Part shown: positions 38,305 through 55,331 of the stretch, one piece after another | How the letters are laid out: each line of letters starts with the position of its first letter | Position numbering within the stretch: position 1 is the stretch's first letter | Origin: Actinomycetes bacterium | Lineage (GTDB): Bacteria > Actinomycetota > Actinomycetes > Mycobacteriales > Mycobacteriaceae | DNA length: 64,000 bases | Direction of reading: 5' to 3' | Assembly: GCA_023461275.1 (NCBI GenBank) | Contig: JAEYMI010000022.1 | Coordinates: forward strand, 30,829 to 94,828 | Program-made: the position numbers and the translations under genes | Notes under the pieces: generated by a model | The model's input: only the letters and a program-made list of their open reading frames with translations | Told to the model about the DNA's origin: nothing | The model's database searches: none

Positions 38305-38344
38305 CTTTGGTAGCCTCGTCGCAGATTCTGATGAGCCATCTCTC

Positions 38345-39688: not shown

Positions 39689-40666
39689 GTGTCACAGCCA
39701 TCTCCGGCACAGCCCGCGCCCGCGGTGGCACCGACCCTGTCGATCGTCATCTGCTGCTACACCGCCCGCCGACTCGACCAGTTGCACGCCGCCGTGCTCA
39801 GCGCGGTCGGCCAACTCGGAGCCGACGACGAGGTCATCGTGGTCGTCGACCACAACCCCGACCTGTTCGCGACGCTGCACGCCGACATCACGGTCCGCGA
39901 CGACCGGGTGCGCGTGCTGGCCAACACCGAGACCAACGGATTGTCGGGGGCGCGTAACACCGGAGTCGGCGCGGCCGTCGGTGGCGTGGTCGTCTTCCTC
40001 GACGACGACGCAGCCTTCGACGCGGGCGCACTCGACGCCGTGCGCAACCGGTTCGCCGGCACCGAGGTGATAGCGATCGGTGGCGCGGTGCTGGCCCGAT
40101 GGTCCGACGACGCCGAACCTGGTTGGTTCCCATCGGAATTCGGTTGGGTGGTGGGCTGCGACTACCGCGGTCTGCCCGCCGACGGCGCCACGATCCGCAA
40201 CCCGATCGGTGCCGCGATGGCGGTCCGACGCGAGGCACTGGTCGAGATCGGCGGCTTCTCGCGCCACCTCGGCCGACGCGGCACCTTCCCCGCCGGGTGC
40301 GAAGAGACTTTGATGGGAATCGTTCTGCACGAACGCTTTCCGAGCTCGGTCATCGTCCGCGACACGGGGCTGCGAGTACACCATCACGTGCCACGAGACC
40401 GCGCGACGTTCGACTACTTCCTTCGACGCTGCTACCAGGAGGGCCGGTCCAAGGCCATCCTGGCGAAGCTGACCTCGGCCGACAGCGCATTGTCCAGCGA
40501 ACGCGGATACGCGACACGCACGCTGCCGTCCGGGGTGTGGCTGCACCGGCGTCAACCCTTGCGCGTGCTGGCGCTGGTCGTCGGATTAGCGGTCACCACA
40601 GCAGGTTTCGTCACCGGAACGGTGAATCACGCTCTACATCGACGTACTGGGGAGGATGTTCGATGA
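39689..40666 (+). CDS. Glycosyltransferase family 2
   Basis: LSIVICCYT, VVVDHN, ARNTG and FLDDD (DxD) motifs, with a C-terminal TM helix. Confidence 0.85.
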   Translation: MSQPSPAQPAPAVAPTLSIVICCYTARRLDQLHAAVLSAVGQLGADDEVIVVVDHNPDLFATLHADITVRDDRVRVLANTETNGLSGARNTGVGAAVGGVVVFLDDDAAFDAGALDAVRNRFAGTEVIAIGGAVLARWSDDAEPGWFPSEFGWVVGCDYRGLPADGATIRNPIGAAMAVRREALVEIGGFSRHLGRRGTFPAGCEETLMGIVLHERFPSSVIVRDTGLRVHHHVPRDRATFDYFLRRCYQEGRSKAILAKLTSADSALSSERGYATRTLPSGVWLHRRQPLRVLALVVGLAVTTAGFVTGTVNHALHRRTGEDVR

Positions 40667-41394
40667 CGACCACAATCGGTTCCGTGCTGCGTGATCCACG
40701 CACCGCACGATTCGCCGGCCTGACGCTACTGCTCTATTTCGCCGCCGAATGGGTGGTCGCGGCGAGCTGGCGCGGACAGTACGGTTATCGTGCCATCCCG
40801 ACCGGCCCGCTGGGTATCGAGTTCTGTGGTCCGCGCGGCAACTGGCCGTGTAGCGCGCTGTACCCGGTGATGAACGTCGGGTTCGCCGTCACCGGCGTCG
40901 CGATCGCCGTGCTCGCGGTGACCTGGCTGGCGCGGCGCGCCATCCCCGTCGCCGGCGGAGTGGCACTGATCCTCAGCGGCGCCGGGTTGCTCATCGCCGG
41001 AATCATCACGCAGCGTGTCGATTACGACGCACACGTGGCGGCCATGTCGGTGTTCTACGTGTTCGGCGCGCTGGGCGTCCTGTTCATCGGGGCATCCGAT
41101 GCCACCGGGTTGTCGGTGCCGGCGCGTGCCGCGCTGATCATGGGTGGTGCACTGGCCACCGTCGCGTACTTCGCCTTCGTCAGCGGGATCACCGGCTGGC
41201 TCGGCGACGGCGGCACCGAACGCGCCATCATCTACCCGATCCTCATCAGCCTGCTCGTCGCCGGCGTGACCGGCGGCAATCACGGCGGTTACCGCGTGGC
41301 AGGCGCCGCGAGCGCGACGGACCAGCCGGCGATCGACGATGCATCCGGCGCGACGGACGAGCCCGAGCTCGCCGCCACCCGGAACCCCGCATGA
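40663..41394 (+). CDS. Polytopic membrane protein (DUF998-like)
   Basis: 243 aa with 6 hydrophobic helices. RBS GGGGAGGA. ATGA overlap with the upstream GT2 gene. Confidence 0.6.
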   Translation: MTTTIGSVLRDPRTARFAGLTLLLYFAAEWVVAASWRGQYGYRAIPTGPLGIEFCGPRGNWPCSALYPVMNVGFAVTGVAIAVLAVTWLARRAIPVAGGVALILSGAGLLIAGIITQRVDYDAHVAAMSVFYVFGALGVLFIGASDATGLSVPARAALIMGGALATVAYFAFVSGITGWLGDGGTERAIIYPILISLLVAGVTGGNHGGYRVAGAASATDQPAIDDASGATDEPELAATRNPA

Positions 41395-42236
41395 TCCGCG
41401 GTATCGGCGGACGCAACGGCTCGCGGCAGGTGAGCCGCTGTGTGTCCGCGGCATCGATGCTGATGGTGGCCGGTACCGTCGCGGCTTGTTCGTCGGCCTT
41501 CGGGGCCGCCTCCCACCAGGACAAGGCGCCGGGCATCATCTTCGCCGACGAATTCGACGGCGACGAGGGTCCCGTCGGCGCACTGTGGCAGACCGAAACC
41601 GGCGGCGGCGGTTGGGGAAACAACGAGGCACAGGTCTACACCGACCGGGCGGAGAACGTCCGCGTCGACGGCCGCGGTCACCTTGAGATCAACGCGCGCT
41701 TCGACGGCACCACCATCACCAGCGCCCGCCTGACCACCCGTCGGCACGCGAGTGTGACCTACGGGCGAGTCGAAGCCCGCATCTCCCTGCCCGCCGGCAA
41801 GGGTCTGCATCCGGCATTCTGGTTGCTCGGCGACAATCTCGACGCGGTGGGCTGGCCCGCCTCCGGTGAGATCGACGTCATCGAAACCCTCAACGACGCA
41901 GCACAATTCCACACCGGCGTACACGCGCCGCGGAAGTCGTCGGAGCGGGGACAGAACGTGATGGTCAGCGGCACCCCGCCGACACCCTTGGCCGGTGAGT
42001 TCCACAACTACTGGATGATCAAGTCCCCCGGCCGAATCGAAACCGGTATCGACAAGACGTCGCTGTTCGTGGTGACCCGCGCCGATCTCGCGGCCGATGC
42101 GCAATGGGTGTTCGACGCACCGTTCCATGTGCTCCTCAATCTCGCGGTGGGCGGCGATTGGCCAGGGCCACCGGATGATTCGACGCCCAACCCCGCCACG
42201 ATGCTCGTCGACTGGGTCCGGGTGACAGCGCTGTGA
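41391..42236 (+). CDS. Glycoside hydrolase family 16 lipoprotein (beta-glucanase-like)
   Basis: Lipobox VAACS. GH16 catalytic motif GEIDVIE and WPAFWLL-like HPAFWLLG. Confidence 0.8.
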   Translation: MIRGIGGRNGSRQVSRCVSAASMLMVAGTVAACSSAFGAASHQDKAPGIIFADEFDGDEGPVGALWQTETGGGGWGNNEAQVYTDRAENVRVDGRGHLEINARFDGTTITSARLTTRRHASVTYGRVEARISLPAGKGLHPAFWLLGDNLDAVGWPASGEIDVIETLNDAAQFHTGVHAPRKSSERGQNVMVSGTPPTPLAGEFHNYWMIKSPGRIETGIDKTSLFVVTRADLAADAQWVFDAPFHVLLNLAVGGDWPGPPDDSTPNPATMLVDWVRVTAL

Positions 42237-43513
42237 ACCACTCCATAGACAACAAACCCATGACCGAGATCACGTTGCAGTCCGCGATGGTGTCCGACGG
42301 CCGTCCCGAATGGGACGGCGCCACCTGGATCGGCATCCTCGACACCGCCCCGATCCAGGCCACTGGCGACGAGATCATCTGCGGCACACCTACGTCGGCG
42401 GACGGCTACCGGCACGCGCGGATACTGATCCGCGACGGTCACCGTCCACTGCACTTCGTCAGCACCCCGATCGAGGGCGGCCGGGTTCGCCTACCGCTCC
42501 CCGACACTCCCACTGACTCCGCCGAGACTGATACCGACGGTGTACCACTGCCGTCGATCTCGGTGGTGCTGTGTACGCGCGAGCGTCCCGACCAACTACG
42601 TGGCGCCCTCGAATCACTCTGTCGCATCGACTATCCCGACTACGAGGTGATCGTCGTCGACAATGCCCCGAGCACCGATGCCACCGAACGAGTCGTCGCC
42701 GAGTTCGACGATCCGCGCGTCCGGCGTGTACTCGCGCCGGTCGCAGGCCTCTCGTCGGCACGCAATGTCGGCGTGCGGGCGGCCGGCCACGATATCGTCG
42801 CCTTCACCGACGACGACGTTGTCGCCGACGTCGGCTGGTTACGCGGACTGGCACGGGGATTCGCCCGGTCAACCGATGTCGCGTGCGTCAGCGGGCTGGT
42901 GCCCAGCGGCGAATTGCGCACGCTGCCACAGGCTTACTTCGATTGGCGGGTGTCCTGGGCGGACAACACCGACGCGCGGGTCTACCGGTTGAGCGACCCA
43001 CCCCCGGACGTGCCGTTGTTCCCATTCCAGGTCGGCGTCTACGGGACCGGCGCCAATTTCGCGGTCCGACGCGACGCCGTCGCCGAGCTCGGCTTCTTCG
43101 ACGAACGTCTCGGCGCGGGAACCGCCACTCGCGGCGGCGAGGACCTCGACATTTTCTTCCGGATGCTGGTCGCCGGCCATGCGCTGGCCGTCGAACCGTC
43201 GTCGATCATCTGGCACCGACACCGAAGTGACAACGACGCCTTGATGTCTCAGGCCCGCGGCTACGGCGTCGGCCTGGGCGCATGGCTGTCCAAGGTCGCG
43301 ATCACGCGGCAGTATCGACGCCTGGCACTGTCGGTGCTTCGACGTCGGCTGAGCGCGGTGGCCCGCGCCGGGGCCGCCTACGGGGCGATCGCGGCACCCC
43401 CGCCGGAGTTCCTGTCCACGGTGCCCTCATCGGTCGGCCGGGTGGAGGTCTTCTCCGTCCTGGCCGGGCCTCGCGCGCTGTGGCGCGCACATCGGGAGCG
43501 GAAGCGATCATGA
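42233..43513 (+). CDS. Glycosyltransferase family 2
   Basis: ISVVLCTRERP, VIVVDNAPSTD, ARNVG and FTDDD motifs. GTGA overlap upstream and ATGA overlap downstream. Confidence 0.85.
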   Translation: MNHSIDNKPMTEITLQSAMVSDGRPEWDGATWIGILDTAPIQATGDEIICGTPTSADGYRHARILIRDGHRPLHFVSTPIEGGRVRLPLPDTPTDSAETDTDGVPLPSISVVLCTRERPDQLRGALESLCRIDYPDYEVIVVDNAPSTDATERVVAEFDDPRVRRVLAPVAGLSSARNVGVRAAGHDIVAFTDDDVVADVGWLRGLARGFARSTDVACVSGLVPSGELRTLPQAYFDWRVSWADNTDARVYRLSDPPPDVPLFPFQVGVYGTGANFAVRRDAVAELGFFDERLGAGTATRGGEDLDIFFRMLVAGHALAVEPSSIIWHRHRSDNDALMSQARGYGVGLGAWLSKVAITRQYRRLALSVLRRRLSAVARAGAAYGAIAAPPPEFLSTVPSSVGRVEVFSVLAGPRALWRAHRERKRS

Positions 43514-45678
43514 CGACCACATCGATGACCACCAGCCCATCCACCTCACCCGAAGAGCCCGACGCGACGGAACCGACGCCGAGCGTCGAGGTGGCCGACA
43601 CCTCCCGCCCGGCGCCGGCCGGTCTGGCCCTACCCGACGTCGCGCTCCTGGCCTCGATCGCCGGATTGGCCGGGCTGGCACCGGTTCCCGCGCCGGTCAA
43701 GGCCGTACTGGTCGCGATCTTCGTGTCGCTGGGGCCCGGCGCCGCCATCGCGACCTGGGTCCCGATCCCGCGGCATCTGCGGCTCGCCGCGATCCCGACG
43801 TTGAGCATGTCGGTGATGACCATCGTGGCAATCGGCGCGATGTGGTCCTACCGGTGGAACCCGACCGGCATCCTGGTGGTGTGCTGTGCGGCCACCGCCG
43901 GTGCCGCCGCGGTGAAATACGTTCGACGCGGCAGTTTTCCACCGTTCTCGAGCTGGATCGGCACCCTGGTGTCCCAGCTCCGCTTCGCCATCACCGCGCC
44001 CGGGGTCAACCCGGCAACGGCGCTGATCGCGGTCGGTCTGATCCTGTGGGCGATGGCGATGCCGTCGCTGCCCGGCACCGACGCCAGCTTCTACGGGCTG
44101 CTCGCATCGGGCAGCGGACGGCTCCTGGTCCCGGCGATCCTGCTCAACGCCGCCGGTTTCTGCTGGGCGGTGACCACCCGCCGGACCGGGGCGGCCGCGT
44201 TCGCCGTTGTCGGCGCCATCGTGATCGGCCGGATGACAACGTGGGTCGGCACCGAGATGCCGCTCTACGACTGGACCTACAAGCACATCGCGGTGGTCCG
44301 ATACATCCTCGAGCACAACCTGATCCAGCCCGACGGCACCGACATCTACGCGCAGTGGCCGGCGTTCTTCGTGACCTCGGCCTGGTATCTCGACGTGACC
44401 GGACTCGACCCCTACGCGCTTGCGCAGGCATTCGCCCCCATCGTGCACGTGCTGTTGGCCCTGATCGTGTACTCGGCCGCGCGGGTGGTCGGGCATTCCC
44501 ATCGAGTCGCGCTGGTGGCCACGTTCATTGCCGAGTCGGTGAATTGGGTTGGCCAGGATTACTTCTCACCCCAGGCATGGACGTTGGTGCTGGCTTTCGG
44601 CCTGATCGCAATACTCATCGCCTCTCGGGGTGCCCCGAGAATGGCTGTGCTGGCGATCATTCCGTTTGCTGCGATGGTGCCCACCCACCAGCTGACACCG
44701 TTCTGGGTACTCGGCGCTGCCACGTTGCTGGTGATCTTCCGACGAGTGCGGCCCTGGTGGGCCGTCGCGGCGATGATCGTGATCGCCGGCGCTTACCTCG
44801 CACTGAACTTCAGTGCTGTTGCGCCCTATGGCATCTTGTCCGGCGGCAACCCGGTGAACAACGCCACCAGCAACGTCACCATGGTGGGATTGCCGTCGCG
44901 GGAGTTCACCTCGCTGATCTGCCGCGGGCTGTCGGCCGGGGTGTTCGCCGCGGCCGCGTTGTCCGCGGTGTGGGCGTGGCGGACGCATCGACGTCACGTT
45001 CTGCTGCAGGCGATCCTGGCATTCTCGGCACTCGGGCTGCTGCTGGGCCAGAGTTATGGCGGTGAGGCGATCTTCCGGGTCTACCTCTACAGCCTGCTGG
45101 GCTGCGCCCTACTGATCGCCCCGTTCTTCGTCATGTTGCTCGACGGGTGGCGGCGCGGACCGTTGCGGTCGATCGGCGCGCTGGGCGCGGTCTCCGGCGC
45201 CCTGGCGGCGGCGCTGGCCGGGCTGTATTCCTTTGTCGCACTGTGGCCGATCGTCGTCGAGACGCGCGACCAGGTGGAGACGATGGACGCGATCACCGCG
45301 CAGGCACCAGCAGGGTCACGGTTCCTCATGATGTACGCCGGCGGCATGCCGACGCGTACAAACGCCAACTACGCCGCCCTCACGCTGCGCAACCCGTACT
45401 TCGACTATTCGCTGGCCTTCGATCTGAACGGCAACACCACCACCTTCCCCACTGCCGAACAGCTCGGGTACCTGGAGTGGAAGATCGACGAGCAACGAGA
45501 ACCCACGTTCATCGCCTTCAGCACGCAATCGAGCCGGACCATCGAGTACTACGGCGGCTTCAGTCCTGGTGCGGTGCAAACGTTTCAGCAGGTGCTTCGG
45601 GAGTCTCCGCAATGGCGCGTGATCCACGAGGGCAAGGACTCGGTGGTGTTCCGACACGACCCACCCGTGCGTAAATGA
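43510..45678 (+). CDS. Large polytopic membrane protein with C-terminal extracytoplasmic domain (candidate polymerase or GT-C-type enzyme)
   Basis: 722 aa with more than 12 hydrophobic helices, followed by a soluble tail of about 130 aa. No motif was recognised by eye. Confidence 0.6.
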   Translation: MTTTSMTTSPSTSPEEPDATEPTPSVEVADTSRPAPAGLALPDVALLASIAGLAGLAPVPAPVKAVLVAIFVSLGPGAAIATWVPIPRHLRLAAIPTLSMSVMTIVAIGAMWSYRWNPTGILVVCCAATAGAAAVKYVRRGSFPPFSSWIGTLVSQLRFAITAPGVNPATALIAVGLILWAMAMPSLPGTDASFYGLLASGSGRLLVPAILLNAAGFCWAVTTRRTGAAAFAVVGAIVIGRMTTWVGTEMPLYDWTYKHIAVVRYILEHNLIQPDGTDIYAQWPAFFVTSAWYLDVTGLDPYALAQAFAPIVHVLLALIVYSAARVVGHSHRVALVATFIAESVNWVGQDYFSPQAWTLVLAFGLIAILIASRGAPRMAVLAIIPFAAMVPTHQLTPFWVLGAATLLVIFRRVRPWWAVAAMIVIAGAYLALNFSAVAPYGILSGGNPVNNATSNVTMVGLPSREFTSLICRGLSAGVFAAAALSAVWAWRTHRRHVLLQAILAFSALGLLLGQSYGGEAIFRVYLYSLLGCALLIAPFFVMLLDGWRRGPLRSIGALGAVSGALAAALAGLYSFVALWPIVVETRDQVETMDAITAQAPAGSRFLMMYAGGMPTRTNANYAALTLRNPYFDYSLAFDLNGNTTTFPTAEQLGYLEWKIDEQREPTFIAFSTQSSRTIEYYGGFSPGAVQTFQQVLRESPQWRVIHEGKDSVVFRHDPPVRK

Positions 45679-45833: not shown

Positions 45834-46817
45834 GTGACACAGGCTTCTGACGACCTGGAGTCCGCACGCGAGCTCGATGTGCCGCAGGTAGGCGACATGA
45901 GCGAGTTCGAAGAAGACTTCACCCACGTCGACGACCCGGAGCCGCATGACCCCGAGTCGGGCAGCGACGCCGCAACCGGTGAGACCACCGAACCGACTGT
46001 CTCCGTAGTGATCCCGACCCGCAACGAAGCACTCAACCTGCCGTATGTTGCCAGCCGGATGCCACCGGTCGACGAGATCATCGTCGTCGACGGCGCATCG
46101 TCGGACGACACCGTCGACGTCGCGCGCCGGCTGTGGCCGCACGCGGTGATCGTCCACCAGTCGCGCGACGGTAAGGGCAACGCACTCGCATGCGGGTTCG
46201 CCGCGGCCACCAGCGACATCATCGTTATGATCGATGCCGACGGCTCGACCGATCCGGCGGAGATCCCGGAGTTCGTCGCCGCGCTGATCAATGGTGCCGA
46301 CCTCGCCAAGGGCAGTCGGTTCTCCCACGGCGGCGGCAGCGACGACATCACCACCTTGCGCAGGTTCGGCAACAAGGGCCTGAACTGGCTGGTGAACCGG
46401 ATCTTCTCGACCGGATTCGCCGATCTCTGCTACGGCTACAACGCATTCTGGCGCCGGCACCTGTCGGTCATCGACCTGCCCGACATCCACGCGAGCGAAC
46501 CGCAGTGGGGTGACGGTTTCGAGGTGGAGACCATCATCAACGTCCGGATGGCTCGCGGCGACATGGCGATCCGTGAGGTCGGCAGCCACGAGAGCCCGCG
46601 CATCCACGGCCGCAGCAATCTCAACGCGGTCAGCGACGGCATCCGTGTGCTGAGAACCATTGACCGCGAACGACGATCGAGGCGTGCCACACTCCGCTCC
46701 TCCGAAGCCCGGTCCGCCGAAGCCCAGACCGGCGCCGAGGACCAGACCGGCGGCCAAGCCCAGACCACCAACACCGCCGATCTTCCACTCGGTGCCGGCA
46801 AGGTGCAACGGCCGTGA
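45834..46817 (+). CDS. GT2 polyprenyl-phosphate glycosyltransferase (Dpm1/GtrB-like)
   Basis: A GTG is preceded by GAGGGGGA. Contains VSVVIPTRNE, VVDGASSD, IDADGS and GSRF motifs. Confidence 0.8.
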   Translation: MTQASDDLESARELDVPQVGDMSEFEEDFTHVDDPEPHDPESGSDAATGETTEPTVSVVIPTRNEALNLPYVASRMPPVDEIIVVDGASSDDTVDVARRLWPHAVIVHQSRDGKGNALACGFAAATSDIIVMIDADGSTDPAEIPEFVAALINGADLAKGSRFSHGGGSDDITTLRRFGNKGLNWLVNRIFSTGFADLCYGYNAFWRRHLSVIDLPDIHASEPQWGDGFEVETIINVRMARGDMAIREVGSHESPRIHGRSNLNAVSDGIRVLRTIDRERRSRRATLRSSEARSAEAQTGAEDQTGGQAQTTNTADLPLGAGKVQRP

Positions 46818-48076
46818 CCGGCAATCGAATTCGCACCCAGGTCGCGATCATCGGTGCCGGCCCCGCTGGGCTCACCTTGGCGCACATGCTGCATCTGCAG
46901 GGCATCGACAGCGTGGTGCTGGAACGTCAGAGCCAGGAGCACGTGCGCTCGCGTATCCGCGCCGGGGTCATCGAACACACCACCGTCGACCTGCTGACTG
47001 AGCTCGGGCTGGCAGAACGTCTGCATCGTGAAGCCCTGGTGCACGATGGTTTCTACCTCCGATTCGACCGCACCACACACCATCTCGACTTCCACCGGCA
47101 CACCGGACGACATGCTTTCGTCTACGGCCAGGCCGAGATAGTCGCCGACCTCATCGACGCCCGCCACGCGACCGGACGCCCGCTGATCTTCGACGCCGAC
47201 GGCGTTCGGGTGCGCGACATCGACACTGACCACCCCGTCGTCGAATACTCCTGGCAGGGTGCGGAATACACCATCGACGCGGATATCGTCGCCGGCGCCG
47301 ATGGATTCCACGGAGTTTGCCGGCAGATGATGGATCCGGCGACCGTGCGGGTCTTCGAACGGTCGTATCCCTTTGCCTGGCTGGGCATCATGGCGCGCAC
47401 CACGCCGGTCACCGCCGAGGGCATGTACTGCGCCCACCCCAACGGCCTGTCGGTACACAGCATGCGAGGCCCCAACCTCACGCGGCAATACCTGCAGGTC
47501 GGCGCCGACACCGACCTTTCGGCATGGAGCGACGAGCGGATCTGGGCAGAGTTGCGGCGCCGCAGCGCATCCGACGATCATCCCGAACTCGAGACCGGTG
47601 AGATCATCGAACGCTCGCTCGCACCGCTGCGCAGCGTGGTCACCGAACCGATGCAGCGAGGGTCGTTGTTCCTGCTCGGCGACTCGGCGCACATCGTGCC
47701 GCCGACCGGCGCCAAAGGCCTCAACCTCGCCATGTCCGACGCCAGTGTGCTCTCGCACGCGCTCGGTGTCTTCTACCTCGACCGAGACCGCAGCGCGCTA
47801 GACGCCTACTCGGCCACCGCATTGCCGCGCATTTGGCAGGCGCAGGTCTTCTCGTGGGACCTGACCACCACGTTGCACCGTTTCTCCGACGATGGCTTCG
47901 ACTGGCAGCTGCGGCATGCCCGTCTTCAGCGCTGGGCCACCTCCCTCGACGCGCAGCAGGCGCTCGGCGAGGTCTACCTCGGCTTGCCCTTCCCGACGCC
48001 GTGGCGTCCCGAAATTTCAGTTACACAACCGCGTGACGACGCCGCGTCCGCGCTCGGTGATCGGAGTCTGGCGTGA
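46814..48076 (+). CDS. PobA-family FAD-dependent (amino)hydroxybenzoate hydroxylase
   Basis: GAGPAGL dinucleotide fold. YPFAWLG, SMR and RQY match the PHBH substrate-binding Tyr/Arg/Tyr. Also contains GDSAHIVPPTGAKGLN. Confidence 0.75.
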   Translation: MTGNRIRTQVAIIGAGPAGLTLAHMLHLQGIDSVVLERQSQEHVRSRIRAGVIEHTTVDLLTELGLAERLHREALVHDGFYLRFDRTTHHLDFHRHTGRHAFVYGQAEIVADLIDARHATGRPLIFDADGVRVRDIDTDHPVVEYSWQGAEYTIDADIVAGADGFHGVCRQMMDPATVRVFERSYPFAWLGIMARTTPVTAEGMYCAHPNGLSVHSMRGPNLTRQYLQVGADTDLSAWSDERIWAELRRRSASDDHPELETGEIIERSLAPLRSVVTEPMQRGSLFLLGDSAHIVPPTGAKGLNLAMSDASVLSHALGVFYLDRDRSALDAYSATALPRIWQAQVFSWDLTTTLHRFSDDGFDWQLRHARLQRWATSLDAQQALGEVYLGLPFPTPWRPEISVTQPRDDAASALGDRSLA

Positions 48077-48912
48077 TCGACAACAATGGCAATCGCCGAC
48101 ATATGATGTCCGGCAAGCATATTCGCATGACTCGTATCTTTGGTTCGTCGAGTCGTCGAGCCCTGGTGGTACCCATGGATCACTCGGTGACCATCGGCCC
48201 ACTCGGCGCGCGCGGCCACGCCGACCAGATGGCAGCGGTCCTCGCCCGAGCCGGCGCCGACGCGCTGATCGTCCACAAGGGTCGCGCCCGCACCATCTCA
48301 CCGGGACGCTTCGGATCGATGGGTCTGATCGTTCACCTGTCCGCGGGTACCAATCTCGCGGTCGACCAGACCCGCAAGGTGCTCGTCGGATCGGTGGAGG
48401 AATGCCTGAGCCTGGGTGCCGACGCGGTCAGTGTCCACGTCAACGTCGGTGCGCCAACTGAATCCGAGCAGCTCACCGATCTCGGTGTGGTCGCCGCGGA
48501 GTGCGACAAACTCGGTGTCCCGTTGCTGGCCATGATGTACGCCCGTGGCGGCGTCGCCGACGCCGGCAACACCTCGGTGGCGACGCTGGCACATCTCGCG
48601 GCGATCGCCACCGACCTCGGGGCCGACATCGTCAAGCTCGATTACGCCGGCGCGCCGGAACGGATGAACGAGGTGGTCGACACCAGCCCGCTGCCGATCC
48701 TGGTGGCCGGCGGGCCGACGACTGCTTCCGACGAGGCCGCCATCGCGTTCGGGTTGCAGGTGGCCGAATCACGGGTCGCCGGACTCAGTTTCGGTCGGTT
48801 GATCTTCGGTGCGGAACACCCGCAGCGTGTCGCGTCGACGCTTGCCGACCGCCTGCATCGTGAAGCCGCCCCCGCACACCCGAAGGCGACGGCCACCCTC
48901 GAGCTCGCCTGA
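48073..48912 (+). CDS. DhnA-type class I aldolase (GriI / ADH-synthase AroA'-like)
   Basis: GKHIRMTRIF, VVPMDH, ADIVKLDY (Schiff-base Lys context) and VAGGP motifs. Confidence 0.7.
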   Translation: MIDNNGNRRHMMSGKHIRMTRIFGSSSRRALVVPMDHSVTIGPLGARGHADQMAAVLARAGADALIVHKGRARTISPGRFGSMGLIVHLSAGTNLAVDQTRKVLVGSVEECLSLGADAVSVHVNVGAPTESEQLTDLGVVAAECDKLGVPLLAMMYARGGVADAGNTSVATLAHLAAIATDLGADIVKLDYAGAPERMNEVVDTSPLPILVAGGPTTASDEAAIAFGLQVAESRVAGLSFGRLIFGAEHPQRVASTLADRLHREAAPAHPKATATLELA

Positions 48913-48991
48913 GCCCGCGCCTGTGCACCTCCGACATCAGCACCCGGACCATCAGACCCAGCCCATCAGTTCCCAGCAAGAAGGCACCATC

Positions 48992-50200
48992 ATGAGCGCA
49001 TCCACCGATATCGTCACCGACGACATCACCCCCCTCAAACCCGTTCCGTCGGTCACCGCCGCCGGCTCGACCAGCATCTCCGGGGCCAGCGAGACCGACG
49101 GTCCGCGTGAACATTTCGCGTGGATCGATGTCCGCAACACGAAGGGCTCATTGCGCGACGCGCTGATCCAGGCCGCCATCCACCATCGCATCGACGGCGT
49201 CGTCTCCGACGATCCCGCCGTCCTGATCGATCTACCACCGACGATTCGTCGGGTGCTGACCGGCACTTCGTCGGCCGAGTCCGGGTCCATCGACCTCACC
49301 CTCGTCGAACATCCCGGCCACGACGGACCGATCGAGGCGCCGTCGTCGGATGCCGATCTCGGTGTGCACGTGGTGGTCTCCGACGCCGAGACGCTGCGGC
49401 ATGCCTGCGAGATCGTGCGTCGGGTGCCGTGGACTGTCCTGACCTTCACCGACCCCACCAAGATCCCGCTGGAGATCGTCATCGCCGCCGCGGAGAACTC
49501 CGGCGGCCGCAGCATCACCGTCGTCAACGACATCGAGGATGCCGAGATCGTCAAGCTGGTTCTCGAACACGGTTCCGACGGACTGCTTCTGGCGCCTCGC
49601 AACGCCGATGACGTGGCCACTCTCGCCGAGGTCATCCGGCCGTCAGCGGAGACGATCGAGCTGACCGAACTCACGGTCACCAAGGTCGAGCACATCGGCA
49701 TGGGTGAGCGGGCGTGCATCGACACCTGCTCACTGCTGGAGAAGGACGAAGGCTGCCTGATCGGCTCCTTCTCCACCGGAATGTTTCTGTCCTGCAGCGA
49801 AACACATCCGCTCCCCTACATGCCGACCCGCCCGTTCCGATGGAACGCCGGTGCGGTGCACTCCTACGTCCTCACCCCGGGAAACCGGACCCGCTACGTC
49901 AGCGAACTGCACGCCGGGCAGCCGATCCTCGCCGTCCGCAGCGACGGCTCGGTGCGCGAGGTTCGGATCGGACGCGTGAAAATCGAACGGCGGCCGATCA
50001 TCTCGGTCACCGCGACCGCACCCGACGGCCGCGTCGTCAACGTGATCGCCCAGGACGACTGGCATGTCCGGCTGCTCGGCCCGGGTGGATCGGTCAACAA
50101 CGTCACCGACCTCAAGCCCGGCGACCTGCTCCTCGGCTACGCGCCCAGCGAATCCCGCCACGTCGGCCTGCCGATCACCGAGTTCTGCGACGAGCGATAG
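48992..50200 (+). CDS. 3-dehydroquinate synthase II family protein (GriH / 3-amino-4-hydroxybenzoate synthase-like)
   Basis: 402 aa, recognised as archaeal-type DHQS-II/GriH. It is paired with the DhnA aldolase, as in griI-griH. Confidence 0.65.
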   Translation: MSASTDIVTDDITPLKPVPSVTAAGSTSISGASETDGPREHFAWIDVRNTKGSLRDALIQAAIHHRIDGVVSDDPAVLIDLPPTIRRVLTGTSSAESGSIDLTLVEHPGHDGPIEAPSSDADLGVHVVVSDAETLRHACEIVRRVPWTVLTFTDPTKIPLEIVIAAAENSGGRSITVVNDIEDAEIVKLVLEHGSDGLLLAPRNADDVATLAEVIRPSAETIELTELTVTKVEHIGMGERACIDTCSLLEKDEGCLIGSFSTGMFLSCSETHPLPYMPTRPFRWNAGAVHSYVLTPGNRTRYVSELHAGQPILAVRSDGSVREVRIGRVKIERRPIISVTATAPDGRVVNVIAQDDWHVRLLGPGGSVNNVTDLKPGDLLLGYAPSESRHVGLPITEFCDER

Positions 50201-50207
50201 GCCGGCG

Positions 50208-51422
50208 GTGACCATCTCGACAGCCGCCGGACCACCGGTCACCGGTTCAGACGACAACGGCACGGCGCCAACCTCTCCCGACGTCCTCTGGTACATCAAC
50301 CCGACCGATGGCGAGGCACCCTGGGAGCCGACCCAACGGTACGAGCCGACGTTCGAACGTCTGCGGCATCAGGCCCGCACACTCGACCGACTCGGCTATT
50401 GGGGCGCGTTGACGACTGCGCGCGAACCCATTTCGCTCGTCGCCGACACCGAGAACCTACGCTTCCTGATCCCGGTGTACCCGGGCGTCAAGCCACCGGT
50501 TCTGATGGCCGAAGAGGCACAGGTCTTCGACCAGTACTCCGGCGGCCGACTGCTGATCAACCAGGTCAACGGCGCCGACCCCGTGCTGCATCGTTACGGC
50601 AGATTCCATTCCAAAGCCGAACGCTATCGACTCTCCGCGGAGTACTGGCGACAGGTCAAGCGCCTCTATCTCGACGACGCCGAGGCGTACGACGGCGAAT
50701 TCTTCACCTACGGACCGCAATACAAGCCGTCGATTCCGGGGCCGCGGCAACCCAACGGGCTACCGATCTGGGGAACCGGAGCGTCGCCGGAGGGCATCGA
50801 CCACGCCGTCGACGTCCTCGACGTGTATCTCTCGTTCATGTCCGAGCCGTCGTCGCTGGCCGGTCTGTTCAACCGGGTGCGTGCCGCCGCCGCGGCCAAG
50901 GGACGCACCCTGCGCTTCGGTGTACTGGCCAGCGTCATCGTCCGCGACACCGACGAGGCCGCCTGGGAACGTTTCGAATGGCAACTCGCGCAGACCCGGC
51001 CGGAAACCGTACTGGCCACCGCCGACCGTAACCTGCGCAGTTTCGGCTACCCCGGACTCGACGAGATCACCAGTGACGACCCGCAGGTACAAGCCCGGAT
51101 CGACGCCCTGCGCGCCGGCCGGATTCCCGCACGGGCCGAGTTGCAGTTCGCGCCGAATATGGCTGCCGGACTGACCACCTGGACCGCCGCCGAACCGCCC
51201 TTCGACATCGCGGGCAAGGGCACCGGCACCTACTTCGTGGGCAGCGCCGAGAACGTCGCGGCCACCATGCGTTCGGTCGCCGAACAGGCCGGTATCGACG
51301 TCTGGATCCTGTCGGCGTGGCCGCTGGCACGCGAAGCCGAGATCGCCGCCGAACTCCTGCTTCCGCAGCTGCGCGAACAACATTCGACGTCCGGCGCGGG
51401 ACACCGCGAGACCCGACGGTGA
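50208..51422 (+). CDS. LLM-class (luciferase-like, SsuD-type) flavin-dependent monooxygenase
   Basis: VLWYINPTDGE... N-terminus, with TIM-barrel LLM pattern LLINQVNG and GSAENVAATM. The GTG start lies 7 nt after the upstream stop. Confidence 0.65.
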   Translation: MTISTAAGPPVTGSDDNGTAPTSPDVLWYINPTDGEAPWEPTQRYEPTFERLRHQARTLDRLGYWGALTTAREPISLVADTENLRFLIPVYPGVKPPVLMAEEAQVFDQYSGGRLLINQVNGADPVLHRYGRFHSKAERYRLSAEYWRQVKRLYLDDAEAYDGEFFTYGPQYKPSIPGPRQPNGLPIWGTGASPEGIDHAVDVLDVYLSFMSEPSSLAGLFNRVRAAAAAKGRTLRFGVLASVIVRDTDEAAWERFEWQLAQTRPETVLATADRNLRSFGYPGLDEITSDDPQVQARIDALRAGRIPARAELQFAPNMAAGLTTWTAAEPPFDIAGKGTGTYFVGSAENVAATMRSVAEQAGIDVWILSAWPLAREAEIAAELLLPQLREQHSTSGAGHRETRR

Positions 51423-52792
51423 GTTCACGACCGGTCGGCTCTCCGATTCGCCGTGTCCAATCGATCGTCGGTGCCGCACGTCGGAGCCGTCAGGCACCGT
51501 CGAGCGGCCTCAGTGTCGACATCGCGGCGATCATGACGTCGAGCATCATGACCGGCGCACTCGGTTTCGTGTTCTGGACCATCGCCGCCCGCGGCTACAC
51601 GCCGGCGGAGGTGGGTCGGGCGTCGGCGATCATCTCGTCGGCGACGTTGCTCAGTTCGCTGTCGAACCTGAGCCTCGGCGACCTCTACGAGCGATTCCTG
51701 CCGGTGTCCGGGCGCGACGCCGCCCGTCACATCGCGTCGGGCCGGTTCGCGATCATGGCGCTCGCCGCGGTGATGGGTGTCGGGTTCGTCCTGCTCGGTC
51801 CGCGGGAATCGTTGTTCGACAGCATGATCGAACAGATTCTCTATCCCATCGCTGTCGTGGTGCTCGGTGTCTTCGCCATCCAGGACAAGACGCTCATCGG
51901 GCTCGGCCGTGCCCGGACGGTGGCGAGGAAGAACATCACGCAGTCGGTGGCGAAGCTGGCGCTGGTGGCGGCGTTCATTCCGCTGGCCACCGGCTCGGCG
52001 ATCGTGTGGGCATGGGTGGTTCCGGCGGCGTTGATCGCGATCTGGATCGGCTTCACCTCGGTACGCACGAGTAGCCGCGCGATGGTCGGTGAGCCCAATC
52101 TGCCGCCACGAAGCGAGATCTGGCACTTCTTCGCGGGATCGTTGGCGATGAACGTGGTGGGTGTCTTTGTGCCGCTGGTGGTTCCGCTGGTGATCGTCGC
52201 CACCTTGGGCACCGAGATGAACGCCTACTTCTCGATCTGCTGGCTCATCATCTCCACGGCCATCATCCTGCTGTACTCGACTGCCGCCCCGTTCATCTCG
52301 GCCGCCGCGGAACCGGGAGCCGATCTGCGTCATGCCACAATCCGCTTCATCGCGCTGTGTGGCGGGGCGGGCATTCTCAGCTGCGTGGGCCTGATCATCA
52401 TCGCGCCGTGGGTGTTGGCGATCATGGGGCCGTCCTACGCCGAGAACGGCACCGTGCTGGTGCGGCTGATGGCGTTGACGTTGCCGACGGTCTCATTTGT
52501 CGCGATCTACACCGCGCTGGCCAAAGTCGAACGGCGACTGCGGTTCGCGGTCGGCGTTCAGGTGGTGTTCGGGATCTTCGTCATCGCCGGCATCGCGCCG
52601 GCCGCCGAACGATGGGGCATCCAAGGGGTCGGTTACCTCTATCTCGCCGCCGATCTGCTCGTGGTGGCCATCCTGCTCGTCCCGGGGATCGCGTTGATCC
52701 GCCGTGCGCTGCGCCATCCGGTCGCCCCGACCGTCGCAGACACCCCGAACGTCGTGCGTAGCTCATCTGCTTCGTCGGGAACATGGTCATGA
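51419..52792 (+). CDS. MOP-superfamily (Wzx-like) oligosaccharide/lipid flippase
   Basis: About 457 aa with about 12-14 TM helices. GTGA overlap with the upstream gene. Confidence 0.5.
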   Translation: MSSRPVGSPIRRVQSIVGAARRSRQAPSSGLSVDIAAIMTSSIMTGALGFVFWTIAARGYTPAEVGRASAIISSATLLSSLSNLSLGDLYERFLPVSGRDAARHIASGRFAIMALAAVMGVGFVLLGPRESLFDSMIEQILYPIAVVVLGVFAIQDKTLIGLGRARTVARKNITQSVAKLALVAAFIPLATGSAIVWAWVVPAALIAIWIGFTSVRTSSRAMVGEPNLPPRSEIWHFFAGSLAMNVVGVFVPLVVPLVIVATLGTEMNAYFSICWLIISTAIILLYSTAAPFISAAAEPGADLRHATIRFIALCGGAGILSCVGLIIIAPWVLAIMGPSYAENGTVLVRLMALTLPTVSFVAIYTALAKVERRLRFAVGVQVVFGIFVIAGIAPAAERWGIQGVGYLYLAADLLVVAILLVPGIALIRRALRHPVAPTVADTPNVVRSSSASSGTWS

Positions 52793-54225
52793 CCGTGTCA
52801 CCGGATCGGGTCTCGGCTACCAGCGTCGCGGCCGGATTTGCGCATGCCGCACAACGATTCGACGACGCCGCCGCACTTCGCATGGGGCACGAGGTGATCA
52901 CCTACCGCGAGTTCGGCACACGGTCGAGAAACATCGCTGCCGCCCTCGAGCGCCTCTCCCCCGAAGCCGACGGTCCGGTCGTCGTGCAACTGCCGATGTC
53001 TGCGGATTCGGCTGCCATCGTGCTCGGTGTCTTCACCGCCCGTCGGCCCCTCGTCGCCCTCGATCCGGAACTCCCGCGCGAACGAATCGCCGGAATCCTC
53101 GGCGAACTCGGTCGTCACGGACGGTCACCGGCATTGTTCGTCGCGGCCGCGAGCCACCTCGACGATGCTCGGGTCATTGCCGAACCGCATGACCTCGCTG
53201 TCGTCGACGCTGCCACGCTTGACGTCCGAGGCGACGCTGATATGGCTGTTCCGCAGCGCTATTCGGCAGACACCGTGACCAGCATCCAGTTCACCTCCGG
53301 TTCCACCGGGTCACCGAAGGGCGTGCTGCACCCCGACGCGATGTGGCTGGCCGACGCGGTCTTCATGCGCGACTGCTTCGACATCACCCCCGGCCAACCA
53401 GTCGCCCTGTGTTTGCCCTTCAGCTTTGGTGCCGGCCTGAACGTCTTGATCAACTCGTTGCTCAACGGCGCCGAGATCACCGTTGTCGATCCGCGTACCG
53501 CGGGTACCACCGCCGTCCTGGAGGCCATCGCGAGCGCGGACTCGACCACCGCGTTCATGACGCCGAATCTCTTGCGGGCGTTGCTCGGTGCGCGCGGCGA
53601 TGCCGACCGTGCGCACCGCGCGTGGGGCTCGGTGAAGCGGATCATCACCACCGGTGAACCGTTGCGCGGCGACCTCGCGGCCGACGCGGTGCGACGTGCC
53701 CGGCAGGCCGTCGTCACCAATTGGGTCGGATCGTCGGAGACCTCGGCGCTGGCCTATTTCGATGTGCGACAGGGTGATCAGATCGAACCCGGCAACCTCC
53801 CGGCGGGCAGGCTGGCGCCCGGCAAGTCGGTGATCTTCGACGACGACGGCCGCATCGTCGTCGTATCCCCTTATCTCGCACAGGGGTATCTCGACGCGAC
53901 GATGAACCCCGGACGGTTCGGTCACGACGAGTCGGGCACACCCTACTTCCAGATGGGTGATCGCGGCGAGTGGCAGAACGGCATCCTGTATCTGCAGGGG
54001 CGAACCGACAATGCCGTCAAGGTGCGCGGCTATCTCGTGGAGCCTGCCGAGATCGAGAAGGCATTGTTGGCCGACGGTGATCTGCGCGAGGTGACCGCGG
54101 TACCGATCACCAACTCCGCCGGCGCGTGGAGTTGGCCGCCTACGTGGTACCCAGCGGCTCGACCCGCACGCCACCGACCGCCGTGTTACGCGTCCGGCTT
54201 CGGGATCGTTTGCCGGACTGGATGA
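52783..54225 (+). CDS. NRPS-like adenylation domain, frame 1 of a frameshifted A-T-TE gene
   Basis: A3 motif TSGSTGSPKG, A5-like NWVGSSE and A8 GRTDNAVKVRGYLVEPAEIE. After ...VTAVPITNSAG the frame becomes junk (AWSWPPTWYP...). Confidence 0.75.
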   Translation: MVMTVSPDRVSATSVAAGFAHAAQRFDDAAALRMGHEVITYREFGTRSRNIAAALERLSPEADGPVVVQLPMSADSAAIVLGVFTARRPLVALDPELPRERIAGILGELGRHGRSPALFVAAASHLDDARVIAEPHDLAVVDAATLDVRGDADMAVPQRYSADTVTSIQFTSGSTGSPKGVLHPDAMWLADAVFMRDCFDITPGQPVALCLPFSFGAGLNVLINSLLNGAEITVVDPRTAGTTAVLEAIASADSTTAFMTPNLLRALLGARGDADRAHRAWGSVKRIITTGEPLRGDLAADAVRRARQAVVTNWVGSSETSALAYFDVRQGDQIEPGNLPAGRLAPGKSVIFDDDGRIVVVSPYLAQGYLDATMNPGRFGHDESGTPYFQMGDRGEWQNGILYLQGRTDNAVKVRGYLVEPAEIEKALLADGDLREVTAVPITNSAGAWSWPPTWYPAARPARHRPPCYASGFGIVCRTG

Positions 54226-55319
54226 TTCCAGCACACTTCGTCGAACTCACGGAGTTGCCGCGCACTGGGCGCGGCAAGGTCGACCGTGCCGCACTTCCGG
54301 TCCCCAGCCGTGTCATCGAGCCGCCGCGCGGCGAGACCGAAGCCGCGATTGCAGCGGTGTGGGCCGAGGTCCTGCAACTCGATGAGGTCGGACGCGACGA
54401 GAACATCTACGCCTTGGGCGCGGATTCGTTGACAGTGCAGGACATTCTGGTCGCCATGACCCGACGCCTCGGCATCACACTGACCCAAGCACAGGCCGCG
54501 GCGTGTCCGACGGTCGCGCTGATGGCTGAGATCGCCGACGGACCGACAGGTTCTGGTCCTTTCGGCACAGTGTCCGGACGGTTGGCCGGCCTGGCCCCGA
54601 CAACCGTGCCGTTGCACTCCGGGGCGGGGCGGCCGGTGTTCTGCTTTACCGGCGCCGGAGCTTCCGCCCTTGCGTTCGTACCATTCGCCGAAAAGCTGGC
54701 CCGCCGCGACGGGGTCGGATCGGTGTACGCCTTCGCCCCGAACGGTCTCGAGAACCGTGGGCTACCGGATTGGACGGTTGCCGCAGCGGCCCGACGCCAC
54801 CTGCGCGACCTGCGCCGCATCCAACCCACCGGACCCTATGTGCTGGTGGGACATTCGCTCGGCGGATTCATCGCTCTCGAGGTGGCGCGGCGGTTGCGCG
54901 CCGCAGGTGAACGCGTCGATCAGGTGGTTGTTCTCGATACCTTTCTGCCGCAACGTTTTGCGCGTTCGGCAACCACGGTCGACCCGGATCTGTCGGTGAC
55001 CGCACCGGAAGCGCCCTTACCGCGCGCCGAGTTGTGGCGACGCCGGGCCCGAATCCCGTTGGCGGGCCTCGTGCCGATGTCGCCGGTCGATTCGGCGCGC
55101 GCAATGGAAGAGGTCGGCCGTCGGGTGGGAATCTTCCACCGCCCCAAGGTCTACGACGGCGACGTACTCCTGGTACTGGGTACCGAGAACCACGACGATC
55201 CACGCATCTGGCGCGACCGCATCGTCACCGGCGAGCTGACCGTGCTACACCTCGACTGCGACCACATGTCGATCATCCGCGACCCCCACATCGGCGCCGT
55301 CGTCGACGCGATGGAATAG
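54126..55319 (+). CDS. NRPS-like A-domain C-terminal subdomain plus thiolation plus thioesterase, frame 2 of the same gene
   Basis: VELAAYVVP, A10 motif PRTGRGKVDR, PCP LGADSLTV, TE motif GHSLGG and LDCDHMS. Confidence 0.75.
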   Translation: MELAAYVVPSGSTRTPPTAVLRVRLRDRLPDWMIPAHFVELTELPRTGRGKVDRAALPVPSRVIEPPRGETEAAIAAVWAEVLQLDEVGRDENIYALGADSLTVQDILVAMTRRLGITLTQAQAAACPTVALMAEIADGPTGSGPFGTVSGRLAGLAPTTVPLHSGAGRPVFCFTGAGASALAFVPFAEKLARRDGVGSVYAFAPNGLENRGLPDWTVAAAARRHLRDLRRIQPTGPYVLVGHSLGGFIALEVARRLRAAGERVDQVVVLDTFLPQRFARSATTVDPDLSVTAPEAPLPRAELWRRRARIPLAGLVPMSPVDSARAMEEVGRRVGIFHRPKVYDGDVLLVLGTENHDDPRIWRDRIVTGELTVLHLDCDHMSIIRDPHIGAVVDAME

Positions 55320-55331
55320 CACCCGCCGCAA

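Follow-up and report, generated by a model that had tools for sequence, protein, structure and literature searches.

The stretch of DNA analysed here, 64,000 nucleotides from a member of the Mycobacteriaceae (contig JAEYMI010000022.1) and called the window throughout, carries at 46814-51422 four genes, encoding a PobA-like hydroxylase, a GriI/GriH-type ring-forming pair and a luciferase-like monooxygenase (LLM). We judge the chances to be about evenly balanced that these genes form the aromatic-building module within a larger, conserved gene cluster for an envelope glycan, in which an aryl unit is joined to a polyprenyl-phosphate-linked glycan. Its recurrence in about 30 actinobacterial genomes suggests an aromatic decoration of the envelope rather than a classic antibiotic pathway. 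The four gene identities and positions given in an earlier note on this DNA are borne out by the listing of open reading frames (ORFs) and by family scans, as is the translational coupling it described, the stop codon of the hydroxylase gene and the start codon of the aldolase gene sharing the overlap GTGA at 48073-48076; a second GTGA overlap (46814-46817) joins the end of the preceding glycosyltransferase gene, GT2c, to the start of the hydroxylase gene. Chance is of no concern, since the family matches are high-scoring and full-length and the gene order is kept in about 30 genomes besides this one. The glycan context was absent from the note. All four genes lie on the + strand within an array of glycan-assembly genes, a setting that makes envelope modification the likelier biology, in place of a secondary metabolite that diffuses away. 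This array (38300-55319) consists of 13 genes in one direction (+) over about 17 kb, with numerous four-nucleotide overlaps, in the order 440-residue protein, GT2a, DUF998-like protein, GH16, GT2b, GT-C protein, GT2c, PobA-like hydroxylase, GriI, GriH, LLM, Wzx flippase and adenylation–carrier–thioesterase enzyme (A-T-TE), where GT2a to GT2c are family 2 glycosyltransferases. The window DNA has a GC content of about 65%, and the genes studied are most closely related to those of Gordonia species.

The case for a joint function is carried by comparison across genomes. Relatives of GriH were gathered from 80 fetched genome loci, with further loci added by contig look-up (loci are given below by L numbers), and placed in a neighbour-joining tree. 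The window GriH falls in one bacterial clade of 28 loci, from Gordonia, Rhodococcus, Williamsia, Mycolicibacterium/Mycobacterium, Microbacterium sp. No. 7 and Solwaraspora; 23 of these loci contain GT2c, Wzx, GT-C or GH16, and 22 contain the A-T-TE gene, while outside the clade none of 55 loci has GT2c, Wzx, GT-C, A-T-TE or a PobA-type gene. The linkage extends over three orders, Mycobacteriales, Micrococcales (L083) and Micromonosporales (L084), with gene order and orientation varying among them, and in Mycolicibacterium chitae (L082) the genes for 3-amino-4-hydroxybenzoate (3,4-AHBA, or AHBA) formation are interleaved with glycan genes. Fusions of GriH to GT2a are seen intact in P0066, a 695-residue protein from a metagenome, and apparently also in M. 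chitae, where the fusion is split into two gene calls. The glycan genes can also stand by themselves: a Rhodococcus jostii-type genome (L081) possesses GT2c, GT2a, GT2b, Wzx, the 440-residue protein, DUF998, GH16 and GT-C with no AHBA gene and no A-T-TE, which gives the AHBA module the look of an optional addition to a glycan pathway that stands by itself. Two side observations concern the fusions. M. chitae has two GriH copies (L082, 5110-7205 and 12431-13603), one stand-alone and located upstream of a Wzx::A-T-TE fusion, the other being the one fused to GT2a; and P0066 and a stand-alone GriH homologue, P0043, are both recorded on a contig of 69,619 nucleotides, which suggests that they share the same contig.

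The ring-forming pair is of the GriI/GriH type and not of the archaeal AroA'/AroB' type, as the earlier note had proposed. On the BagC/FevH model for the 3,4-AHBA synthases of bagremycin and ferroverdin formation, the GriH-like protein reaches 418 bits, compared with 173-246 bits on the archaeal-type equivalogs of the DHQS-II (type II dehydroquinate synthase) family, all of which fall under their cutoffs of 392-629. Its gene lies directly downstream of that for the DhnA aldolase (48912 end, 48992 start), a pairing that is kept in nearly all of 85 related loci. In comparison with Streptomyces-type GriH proteins, to which it is 51-56% identical, the window GriH belongs to a separate clade and bears an N-terminal extension of about 40 residues; a PDB sequence search with it returned no match, and a look-up of its exact sequence found no record. 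The aldolase aligns with archaeal MJ0400 (2qjg, 179 bits) through the motifs VPMDH, AMMYARG (AMMYxRG) and ADIVK, keeps the Schiff-base lysine equivalent to MJ0400 K184, and has the motifs and fold of a GriI-type aldolase. It is 41-51% identical to Streptomyces GriI, and it scores 222 bits on the BagB/FevI model and 226.7 bits on TIGR01949, the ADH-synthase equivalog, below the cutoff of 299.45; by itself, its sequence does not separate GriI from ADH synthase. Independent evidence comes from arylamine N-acetyltransferase (NAT, PF00797) genes, which lie between the hydroxylase gene and griI, or beside them, in nine related loci (L009, L011, L012, L015, L016, L021, L049, L083 and L084) and thereby argue for an arylamine as the product of the pair. 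Activity on 3,4-AHBA, or a role as amide synthase in AHBA pathways, is known for NAT homologues (PMC11213898). The distribution of the AHBA genes within Gordonia, Rhodococcus and Mycolicibacterium is patchy, as for accessory genes. These genera possess the canonical shikimate pathway (AroG/AroB). As a separate observation, assemblies of two R. rhodnii strains (L020, L038) contain two GriH loci of different clades, one in the glycan-associated clade (67% identity) and one of the Streptomyces type (54%) that lacks glycan partners.

The hydroxylase is 46% identical to Pseudomonas PobA over its full length. The motifs YPFAWLG, SMR and RQY on which the note had relied are present and align to PobA W185, S212/R214 and R220/Y222, and the protein also keeps Y201, P293, T294, N300 and Y385. 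It thus shares with PobA (PDB 1pbe, 1d7l, 6ju1) the FAD fold, the carboxylate ligands S212/R214/Y222 and the phenol ligands Y201/P293/Y385. It nevertheless differs from PobA in a consistent manner, scoring 466.5 bits on the PobA equivalog model TIGR02360 (cutoff 538.7) while passing the broader model NF006091. In all 20 GriI/GriH-linked homologues, including those of Microbacterium and Solwaraspora, Gly replaces L199, Met replaces I200, His replaces C211 and Gln replaces Y221, and in most of them Ser replaces A209; the same 20 proteins retain Y201, S212, R214, R220, Y222, P293, T294 and Y385. L199 is among 11 PobA residues located within 4 Å of the substrate (PMC10466732). When this first shell (G46, V47, W185, L199, Y201, L210, S212, R214, Y222, P293 and T294; PMC10466732) was compared together with Y385, 10 of the 12 positions were found to be kept, the departures being L199, which is Gly in 20/20 linked homologues, and L210, which is Val in most. 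When 1.84 billion cluster representatives were searched exhaustively with HMMER, the signature was seen in one full-length protein and one fragment among the best 33 representatives, which were inspected; in the others of these 33, position 199 was Leu, Ile, Val or another residue, never Gly. Judged by these residues, the hydroxylase is a narrow, GriI/GriH-associated offshoot of PobA, which is itself linked to protocatechuate catabolism, and it is predicted to act on 3-amino-4-hydroxybenzoate; an amino-dihydroxybenzoate is a reasonable prediction for its product. Because the carboxylate triad is retained, hydroxylation should precede activation of the carboxyl group.

The parallel that the note drew with CreL and PtmB3 of cremeomycin and platensimycin formation turned out to be one of analogy and not of homology. 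The logic is shared, in that a class A flavoprotein monooxygenase encoded beside GriI/GriH would add one hydroxyl to AHBA. However, the flavoprotein hydroxylases encoded next to GriI/GriH in loci of Streptomyces, Pseudonocardiales and Micromonospora, which stood in for CreL/PtmB3 in this comparison, resemble 3-hydroxybenzoate-6- or salicylate hydroxylases (NF006021, 266-299 bits); they are 24-28% identical to the window enzyme and belong to a different subfamily. CreL and PtmB3 hydroxylate C2. PobA geometry, in contrast, predicts hydroxylation ortho to the 4-hydroxyl group, at C5.

The start of the LLM gene is most likely the in-frame GTG at 50208, because the family match begins at residue 73 of the ORF that opens with ATG 50064, a codon inside griH, and because this GTG lies 8 nucleotides after the griH stop. 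Although SsuD/MsuD-like, the protein reaches 165-168 bits on the alkanesulfonate monooxygenase models TIGR03565/NF001939, compared with cutoffs of 510-518; its best PDB match is 7jv3 (138 bits), and its membership goes no further than the luciferase-like fold family. LLM genes occur in 15 clade loci, 14 of which have the PobA-like gene and one of which is cut by a contig end; the hydroxylase is found without the LLM in seven loci, the LLM without the hydroxylase in none. Being confined to hydroxylase-bearing loci, the LLM probably acts on the hydroxylase product.

The last two genes of the array connect the aromatic and glycan modules. The Wzx protein has 12 hydrophobic segments and a PF01943 match of 20 bits, under the cutoff of 28, and this family is recorded for 14 of 56 listed Wzx homologues, which the sources name O-antigen or teichoic acid export proteins; a PDB sequence search with Wzx gave a single chance match (E = 0.56). 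The 3' end of wzx overlaps the start of the A-T-TE gene by 10 nucleotides, and in three mycobacterial genomes (L010, L022, L082) the two are fused into proteins of 1293-1335 residues. Among the loci compared, the A-T-TE gene comes directly after either griH or the gene for the LLM, much as an AMP-binding enzyme, AhbL2, follows GriH in the ahb cluster. AhbL2 has been assigned to the adenylation of AHBA, and its gene overlaps ahbH (PMC10179220). The motifs TSGSTGSPKG, GRTDNAVKVRGY, GADSL and GHSLG and Lys517 are present in the window A-T-TE, whose gene is split by a one-nucleotide deletion at about 54125 (54115-54130), located by alignment to the closest relative, a Gordonia locus (L085) with 78% nucleotide identity and an intact, 863-residue A-T-TE. 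Elsewhere the gene is always one uninterrupted ORF, unfused homologues having 832-922 residues. The frameshift is either a true inactivating mutation or an assembly error, and the proposed aryl loading may be inactive in this organism. Homologues conserve Lys517, the carrier serine motif (GxxSL) and the thioesterase GxSxG, which reads GHSLG in all except L011 (GYSYG). In amino-acid-activating adenylation domains, Asp235 of the A4 motif normally binds the alpha-amino group. This residue is Gly in 20/20 homologues (FSFGAG, compared with FSFDGS in LgrA), which points to a substrate that has no alpha-amino group. The T-TE region scores 62.8 bits on the Pks13 model and the A domain 113 bits on DltA (PDB E ~1e-21). 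A metagenome scan with the A-T-TE alignment, whose patterns were generic motifs of nonribosomal peptide synthetases (NRPS), returned 80 loci with unrelated NRPS modules (<=35% identity over the best segment) and no GriI/GriH or glycan genes, a result uninformative as to whether relatives of the A-T-TE enzyme are always encoded beside GriH. A variant cluster was observed in Gordonia sihwensis (L011, 1-20739), where GriH, LLM, PobA-like, NAT and GriI genes are shuffled and adjoin a 1133-residue A-T-TE with an N-terminal extension, a 680-residue GT2 and an NRPS of at least 2332 residues that runs off the locus.

On the glycan side, a polyprenyl-phosphate sugar synthase, further GT2 enzymes, a flippase and a GT-C enzyme are the parts of an extracytoplasmic glycosylation pathway. 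GT2c, which is found in 20 of the 28 clade loci as well as in the AHBA-free cluster L081, has its best PDB sequence matches in Pyrococcus dolichol-phosphate-mannose synthase (DPMS, 5mlz) and ArnC; its start may be 45792, 45834 or 45897. GT2a resembles AglG, a glucosyl-dolichyl-phosphate glucuronosyltransferase, and its stop codon overlaps the start of the gene for the DUF998-like protein (ATGA). The 722-residue membrane protein encoded at 43510-45678 had no Pfam or PDB sequence match, even when its profile was used, and a Pfam scan of ten homologues was empty. Its AlphaFold2 model, built from a 33-sequence alignment (pLDDT 87.9, pTM 0.90), placed in a Foldseek search of the PDB, found GT-C proteins in all of the top 14 matches (AftA, STT3, PglB, ArnT, AglB and the C-mannosyltransferase DPY19; probability 0.99-1.00), with TM scores of 0.32-0.49 for 13 matches and 0.22-0.24 for DPY19, and E = 6e-6 for AftA. 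On the evidence of this model the protein is of GT-C fold, and its expected donor is a polyprenyl-phosphate-linked one, used on the outer side of the membrane. The conserved protein of about 440 residues at the head of the array (38300-39622) matched no Pfam or NCBIfam family, and its profile found no PDB match; its homologues occur in the same cluster in L001, L005, L010, L081 and L085, and a single-sequence AlphaFold2 prediction was unusable (pLDDT 33.6). Its invariant motif (Table 1) brings HxxxD acyltransferases to mind; an assignment to this class, of the condensation, PapA5 or WS/DGAT type, was considered and found unsupported, an hhalign comparison with the WS/DGAT protein of the window giving a probability of 0.18. 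At the far end, GT2d directly follows the A-T-TE gene in L085, and the membrane-anchored EEP protein marks a conserved border (L001, L002, L009, L010, L012, L019, L020, L027, L082 and L085). The features of the cluster are collected in Table 1.

Table 1. Genes of the aromatic and glycan modules in the window, with the matches or properties on which each assignment is based (TM, transmembrane segment).
Feature	Position	Strand	Basis
Conserved protein, ~440 aa, no predicted TM	38300..39622	+	Invariant D-x-x-H-G-x-G-D/E motif
GT2a glycosyltransferase, C-terminal TM (291-309)	39689..40666	+	PF00535; NF041394 AglG 168 bits, below cutoff
DUF998-like polytopic membrane protein	40663..41394	+	Weak PF06197; DUF998 in L081 and L085 homologues
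GH16 glycoside hydrolase/transglycosylase, N-terminal TM/signal (17-35)	41391..42236	+	PF00722 50 bits; EglC-like 74 bits
GT2b glycosyltransferase	42233..43513	+	PF00535 88 bits; MftF-type TIGR03965 111.6 bits, below cutoff
GT-C-fold membrane glycosyltransferase (predicted), 722 aa, ~15 TM	43510..45678	+	AlphaFold2 model and fold search; start fixed by P0177
GT2c, polyprenyl-phosphate hexose synthase type (AglJ/DPMS/ArnC-like)	45834..46817	+	TIGR04182 AglJ 118 bits
PobA-derived FAD monooxygenase	46814..48076	+	FAD_binding_3 (PF01494) 257.6 bits; NF006091 513 bits (cutoff 351)
GriI-type DhnA class I aldolase	48073..48912	+	DeoC/DhnA 123 bits; NF005556 266 bits (cutoff 241)
GriH-type 3,4-AHBA synthase (DHQS-II family)	48992..50200	+	PF01959 351.5 bits; NF002625 483 bits (cutoff 375)
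SsuD/MsuD-like FMNH2-dependent LLM	50208..51422 (alternative ATG 50064)	+	Bac_luciferase PF00296 119.7 bits
Putative Wzx/MOP-family flippase (lipid-linked glycan)	51533..52792	+	12 TM; PF01943 weak
NRPS-like adenylation–carrier–thioesterase (A-T-TE)	52783..55319	+	Frameshifted; ORFs 52783-54225, 54126-55319
GT2d glycosyltransferase, far cluster end	59764..60825	-	PF00535 94 bits; in most clade loci
EEP (endonuclease/exonuclease/phosphatase) family, membrane-anchored	60913..61878	-	PF03372 91 bits; weakly VanJ-like, 43 bits

We propose the following sequence of events. GriI would condense aspartate semialdehyde with dihydroxyacetone phosphate and GriH would cyclise and aromatise the product to 3,4-AHBA, a step that is well supported by homology. 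Judging from its residues, the PobA offshoot would then bind free 3,4-AHBA in the pose of 4-hydroxybenzoate, with the carboxylate at S212/R214/Y222, the phenol at Y201/P293 and the 3-amino group in the cavity left by the replacement of Leu199 by Gly, and would hydroxylate the free ortho carbon to yield 3-amino-4,5-dihydroxybenzoate, on which the SsuD-like LLM probably acts. Synteny, the fusions and the adenylation-domain pocket suggest that the A-T-TE enzyme would adenylate the aryl acid and load it onto its own carrier domain, and that the thioesterase would then transfer the aryl moiety, on the cytoplasmic side of the membrane, to a sugar of the polyprenyl-phosphate-linked glycan, this lipid-linked glycan having presumably been built by the AglJ-like GT2c, the AglG-like GT2a and GT2b. 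By analogy with their families, Wzx would flip the lipid-linked glycan once it is decorated, the GT-C enzyme (43510-45678) would pass the glycan to an envelope acceptor, and GH16 would remodel it. In its most specific form, which we put forward tentatively and regard as somewhat improbable, the proposal is that many mycolic-acid bacteria and some other actinobacteria bear on a glycan or glycoconjugate of the envelope an aminocatechol that is redox-active and binds metal, either 3-amino-4,5-dihydroxybenzoyl or a more oxidised form of it; GriI/GriH and a dedicated PobA offshoot would make the ring on the spot, and the A-T-TE enzyme, physically coupled and in some species fused to Wzx, would attach it to the lipid-linked precursor.

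Several observations weigh against an aryl-decorated envelope glycan. Within ±10 kb, six clade loci have no A-T-TE gene (L001, L008, L013, L016, L021 and L084), and five have no GT2c, Wzx, GT-C or GH16 (L008, L011, L013, L016 and L021, of which L011 has another GT2); L008 and L013 retain PobA-GriI-GriH alone, with housekeeping genes on either side. Such loci indicate that the aromatic acid may also act alone, and the co-occurrence counts given above are not phylogenetically independent. The A-T-TE gene of the window itself is frameshifted, and the ten-residue adenylation-domain codes form two unlike groups, GAN(F/V)(I/V)TW(A/S)(L/I)K and GGDHxCxNLK. Because this grouping does not parallel the occurrence of the hydroxylase, the assignment of the A-T-TE substrate is weak; comparison of the specificity codes with PobA/LLM presence gave no clean correlation that could be separated from phylogeny. 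Within the cluster we found no flavin reductase partner for the LLM, whose chemistry is not deducible from sequence, and the 440-residue protein, though conserved in the cluster, has no place in the model. Finally, the acceptor, the linkage and even the attachment are inferred.

If the glycan is not the destination of the ring, the product could be a glycosylated aromatic, either soluble or secreted, that serves as a pigment, chelator or redox cofactor; an AHBA-derived aminophenol would be the aglycone that the GT2 enzymes glycosylate directly, with A-T-TE making an ester or amide derivative or an oligomer and with Wzx and GT-C acting in export or belonging to a neighbouring system. We consider this unlikely, although it is not without precedent, MftF building a glucan on mycofactocin and p-hydroxybenzoate glycosides being made in M. 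tuberculosis. The best NCBIfam match of GT2b is in fact MftF (111.6 bits), and GT2a and GT2d match it weakly, but every one of these matches lies far under the model cutoff of 280, and GT2c and GT2a are closer to AglJ, AglG, DPMS and ArnC than to small-molecule glycosyltransferases. The GriH::GT2a fusions fit direct glycosylation, as do the loci with GT2c and/or AHBA genes and no A-T-TE (L001, L021) and those with PobA-GriI-GriH only (L008, L013). On the other hand, Wzx::A-T-TE fusions bind aryl loading to a flippase for lipid-linked glycans, and the presence of GT2c, GT2a, GT2b, Wzx, GH16 and GT-C together in L081, in the absence of AHBA genes, is that of a self-standing glycan pathway.

That same AHBA-free cluster, together with the AHBA trios that lack glycan genes (L008, L013) and the island-like position of the Gordonia cluster between the conserved pst-phoU and glnR core regions, would also be expected if the adjacency were a coincidence. 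An independent AHBA cassette with its own small-molecule product, made up of GriI/GriH and, in some cases, hydroxylase, NAT, LLM and A-T-TE, would then have landed at a permissive site next to a polysaccharide cluster unrelated to it. This we find improbable. The association recurs in three orders with differing gene orders and orientations, and is found in none of the 55 other GriI/GriH loci; AHBA and glycan genes are interleaved in M. chitae; cross-module fusions are of two kinds, Wzx::A-T-TE and GriH::GT2a; and GTGA overlaps in the window couple GT2c, the PobA-like gene and griI translationally. To a role in primary metabolism we attach hardly any credence. It would make the pair an ADH synthase and DHQS-II (AroA'/AroB') feeding 3-dehydroquinate, and the PobA-like protein a catabolic 4-hydroxybenzoate 3-hydroxylase, and it could draw on the roughly equal similarity of the aldolase to MJ0400 and to Streptomyces GriI, on its passing NF005556, a subfamily model named for ADH synthase, and on the passing of the PobA subfamily model NF006091 by the flavoprotein. 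However, the DHQS-II homologue strongly prefers the AHBA-synthase model (418 bits, compared with <=246 for the archaeal type), the aldolase and the flavoprotein both fall under the respective equivalog cutoffs, and the L199G replacement is absent from the other PobA-family representatives checked. NAT genes in the cluster, and the patchy, accessory distribution of the AHBA genes within genera that have AroG/AroB, argue in the same direction.

The attachment of an aryl unit to a lipid-linked glycan, which is the reading that we prefer, would combine familiar parts in an unfamiliar manner. The DhnA aldolase–DHQS-II unit is the same as in GriI/GriH (grixazone, Streptomyces griseus), BagB/BagC, FevI/FevH, AhbI/AhbH, CreI/CreH and PtmB1/PtmB2, but where other GriI/GriH pathways have a GriC/D reductase, a phenoxazinone synthase, or diazo-forming, polyketide synthase or terpene genes, glycan genes are found here. 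To our knowledge, 3,4-AHBA has been described only from diffusible metabolites of the Streptomyces type, namely grixazone, bagremycin, cremeomycin, platensimycin and the manumycins. The glycan genes supply the same parts (a charging GT2, further GT2s, a Wzx-type flippase and a GT-C enzyme) as Haloferax AglJ/AglG/AglR/AglB, ArnC/ArnE-F/ArnT, mycobacterial PpgS/Rv3779 and AftA, although the sequence matches to these polyprenyl-phosphate glycosylation systems are all well below equivalog cutoffs. We know of no described system of this kind that carries a module for the synthesis and loading of an aryl acid. Acyl transfer from a carrier domain to a sugar has precedents, the Pks13 thioesterase putting mycolate on trehalose and DltA/DltC D-alanylating teichoic acids. 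In common with these, the A-T-TE enzyme has an adenylation and a carrier domain that would deliver an acyl group to a sugar or sugar polymer, a transfer that is hypothetical here; it differs from them in its A-T-TE order within one protein, which is sometimes fused to Wzx, and in the predicted aromatic nature of the acyl group.

Literature searches on 3,4-AHBA, GriI/GriH and DHQS-II yielded no description linking them to Gordonia, Rhodococcus, mycobacteria, glycosyltransferases or glycan assembly. The ring-forming pair is of a known kind; the PobA-derived subfamily, the association with glycan assembly and the Wzx-coupled A-T-TE appear to be undescribed. The comparison delineates a separate GriH clade that in Gordonia, Rhodococcus, Mycolicibacterium, Williamsia, Microbacterium and Solwaraspora is tied to polyprenyl-phosphate glycan assembly. 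If an aryl group is indeed carried on an envelope glycan, this would be a new actinobacterial surface chemistry, aminophenols and aminocatechols being redox-active, metal-binding and capable of cross-linking, and both the class of envelope modification and the use made of NRPS-like machinery, in the form of an A-T-TE enzyme fused to a flippase, would be new. The L199G hydroxylase would then be a natural PobA variant that accepts 3-substituted 4-hydroxybenzoates, which is of biocatalytic interest for polybenzoxazole monomers.

The surroundings of the cluster were also surveyed. A scan for promoters and terminators over 37.6-57 kb gave no signal above chance, and a megablast search of plasmids with the region found short PobA-like fragments in Burkholderiaceae replicons and nothing else. 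On the left (30080-37705) lie genes for an LCP (LytR-CpsA-Psr) protein and PhoU and a block with pstS, and on the right (61884-63672) genes for a GNAT protein, probably MshD-like, and GlnR, a flanking order that we take to recall the Rv0818-Rv0822c region of M. tuberculosis; the cluster thus gives the impression of having been inserted into conserved core DNA. A segment of some 4.4 kb (55320-59760) that separates the A-T-TE gene from GT2d has a lower GC content (0.58-0.60) and is missing in the otherwise collinear Gordonia relative L085, and it looks like a recent insertion; it encodes a 787-residue protein (55845-58208) with EspA-like tetratricopeptide repeats (PF23275, 166 bits), beside which lie unannotated ORFs. 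Farther away, the gene at 3814-5040, at a distance of 45 kb from that for the SsuD-like LLM, codes for a member of the arylsulfotransferase (ASST) family (PF14269, 156 bits). The stretch at 5000-14200 is mostly absent from the ORF list filtered by GC at the third codon position and may be foreign DNA; it includes a DUF4145 protein (5501-6634), a membrane protein resembling fusaric acid resistance proteins (8574-10769) and ORFs that have no family match. At 25829-28633, a WS/DGAT wax-ester synthase/acyltransferase gene (PF03007, 266 bits) is divergent from one for an acyl-ACP-type fatty-acid desaturase (PF03405, 242 bits), both being ordinary lipid-metabolism genes of the mycolata.

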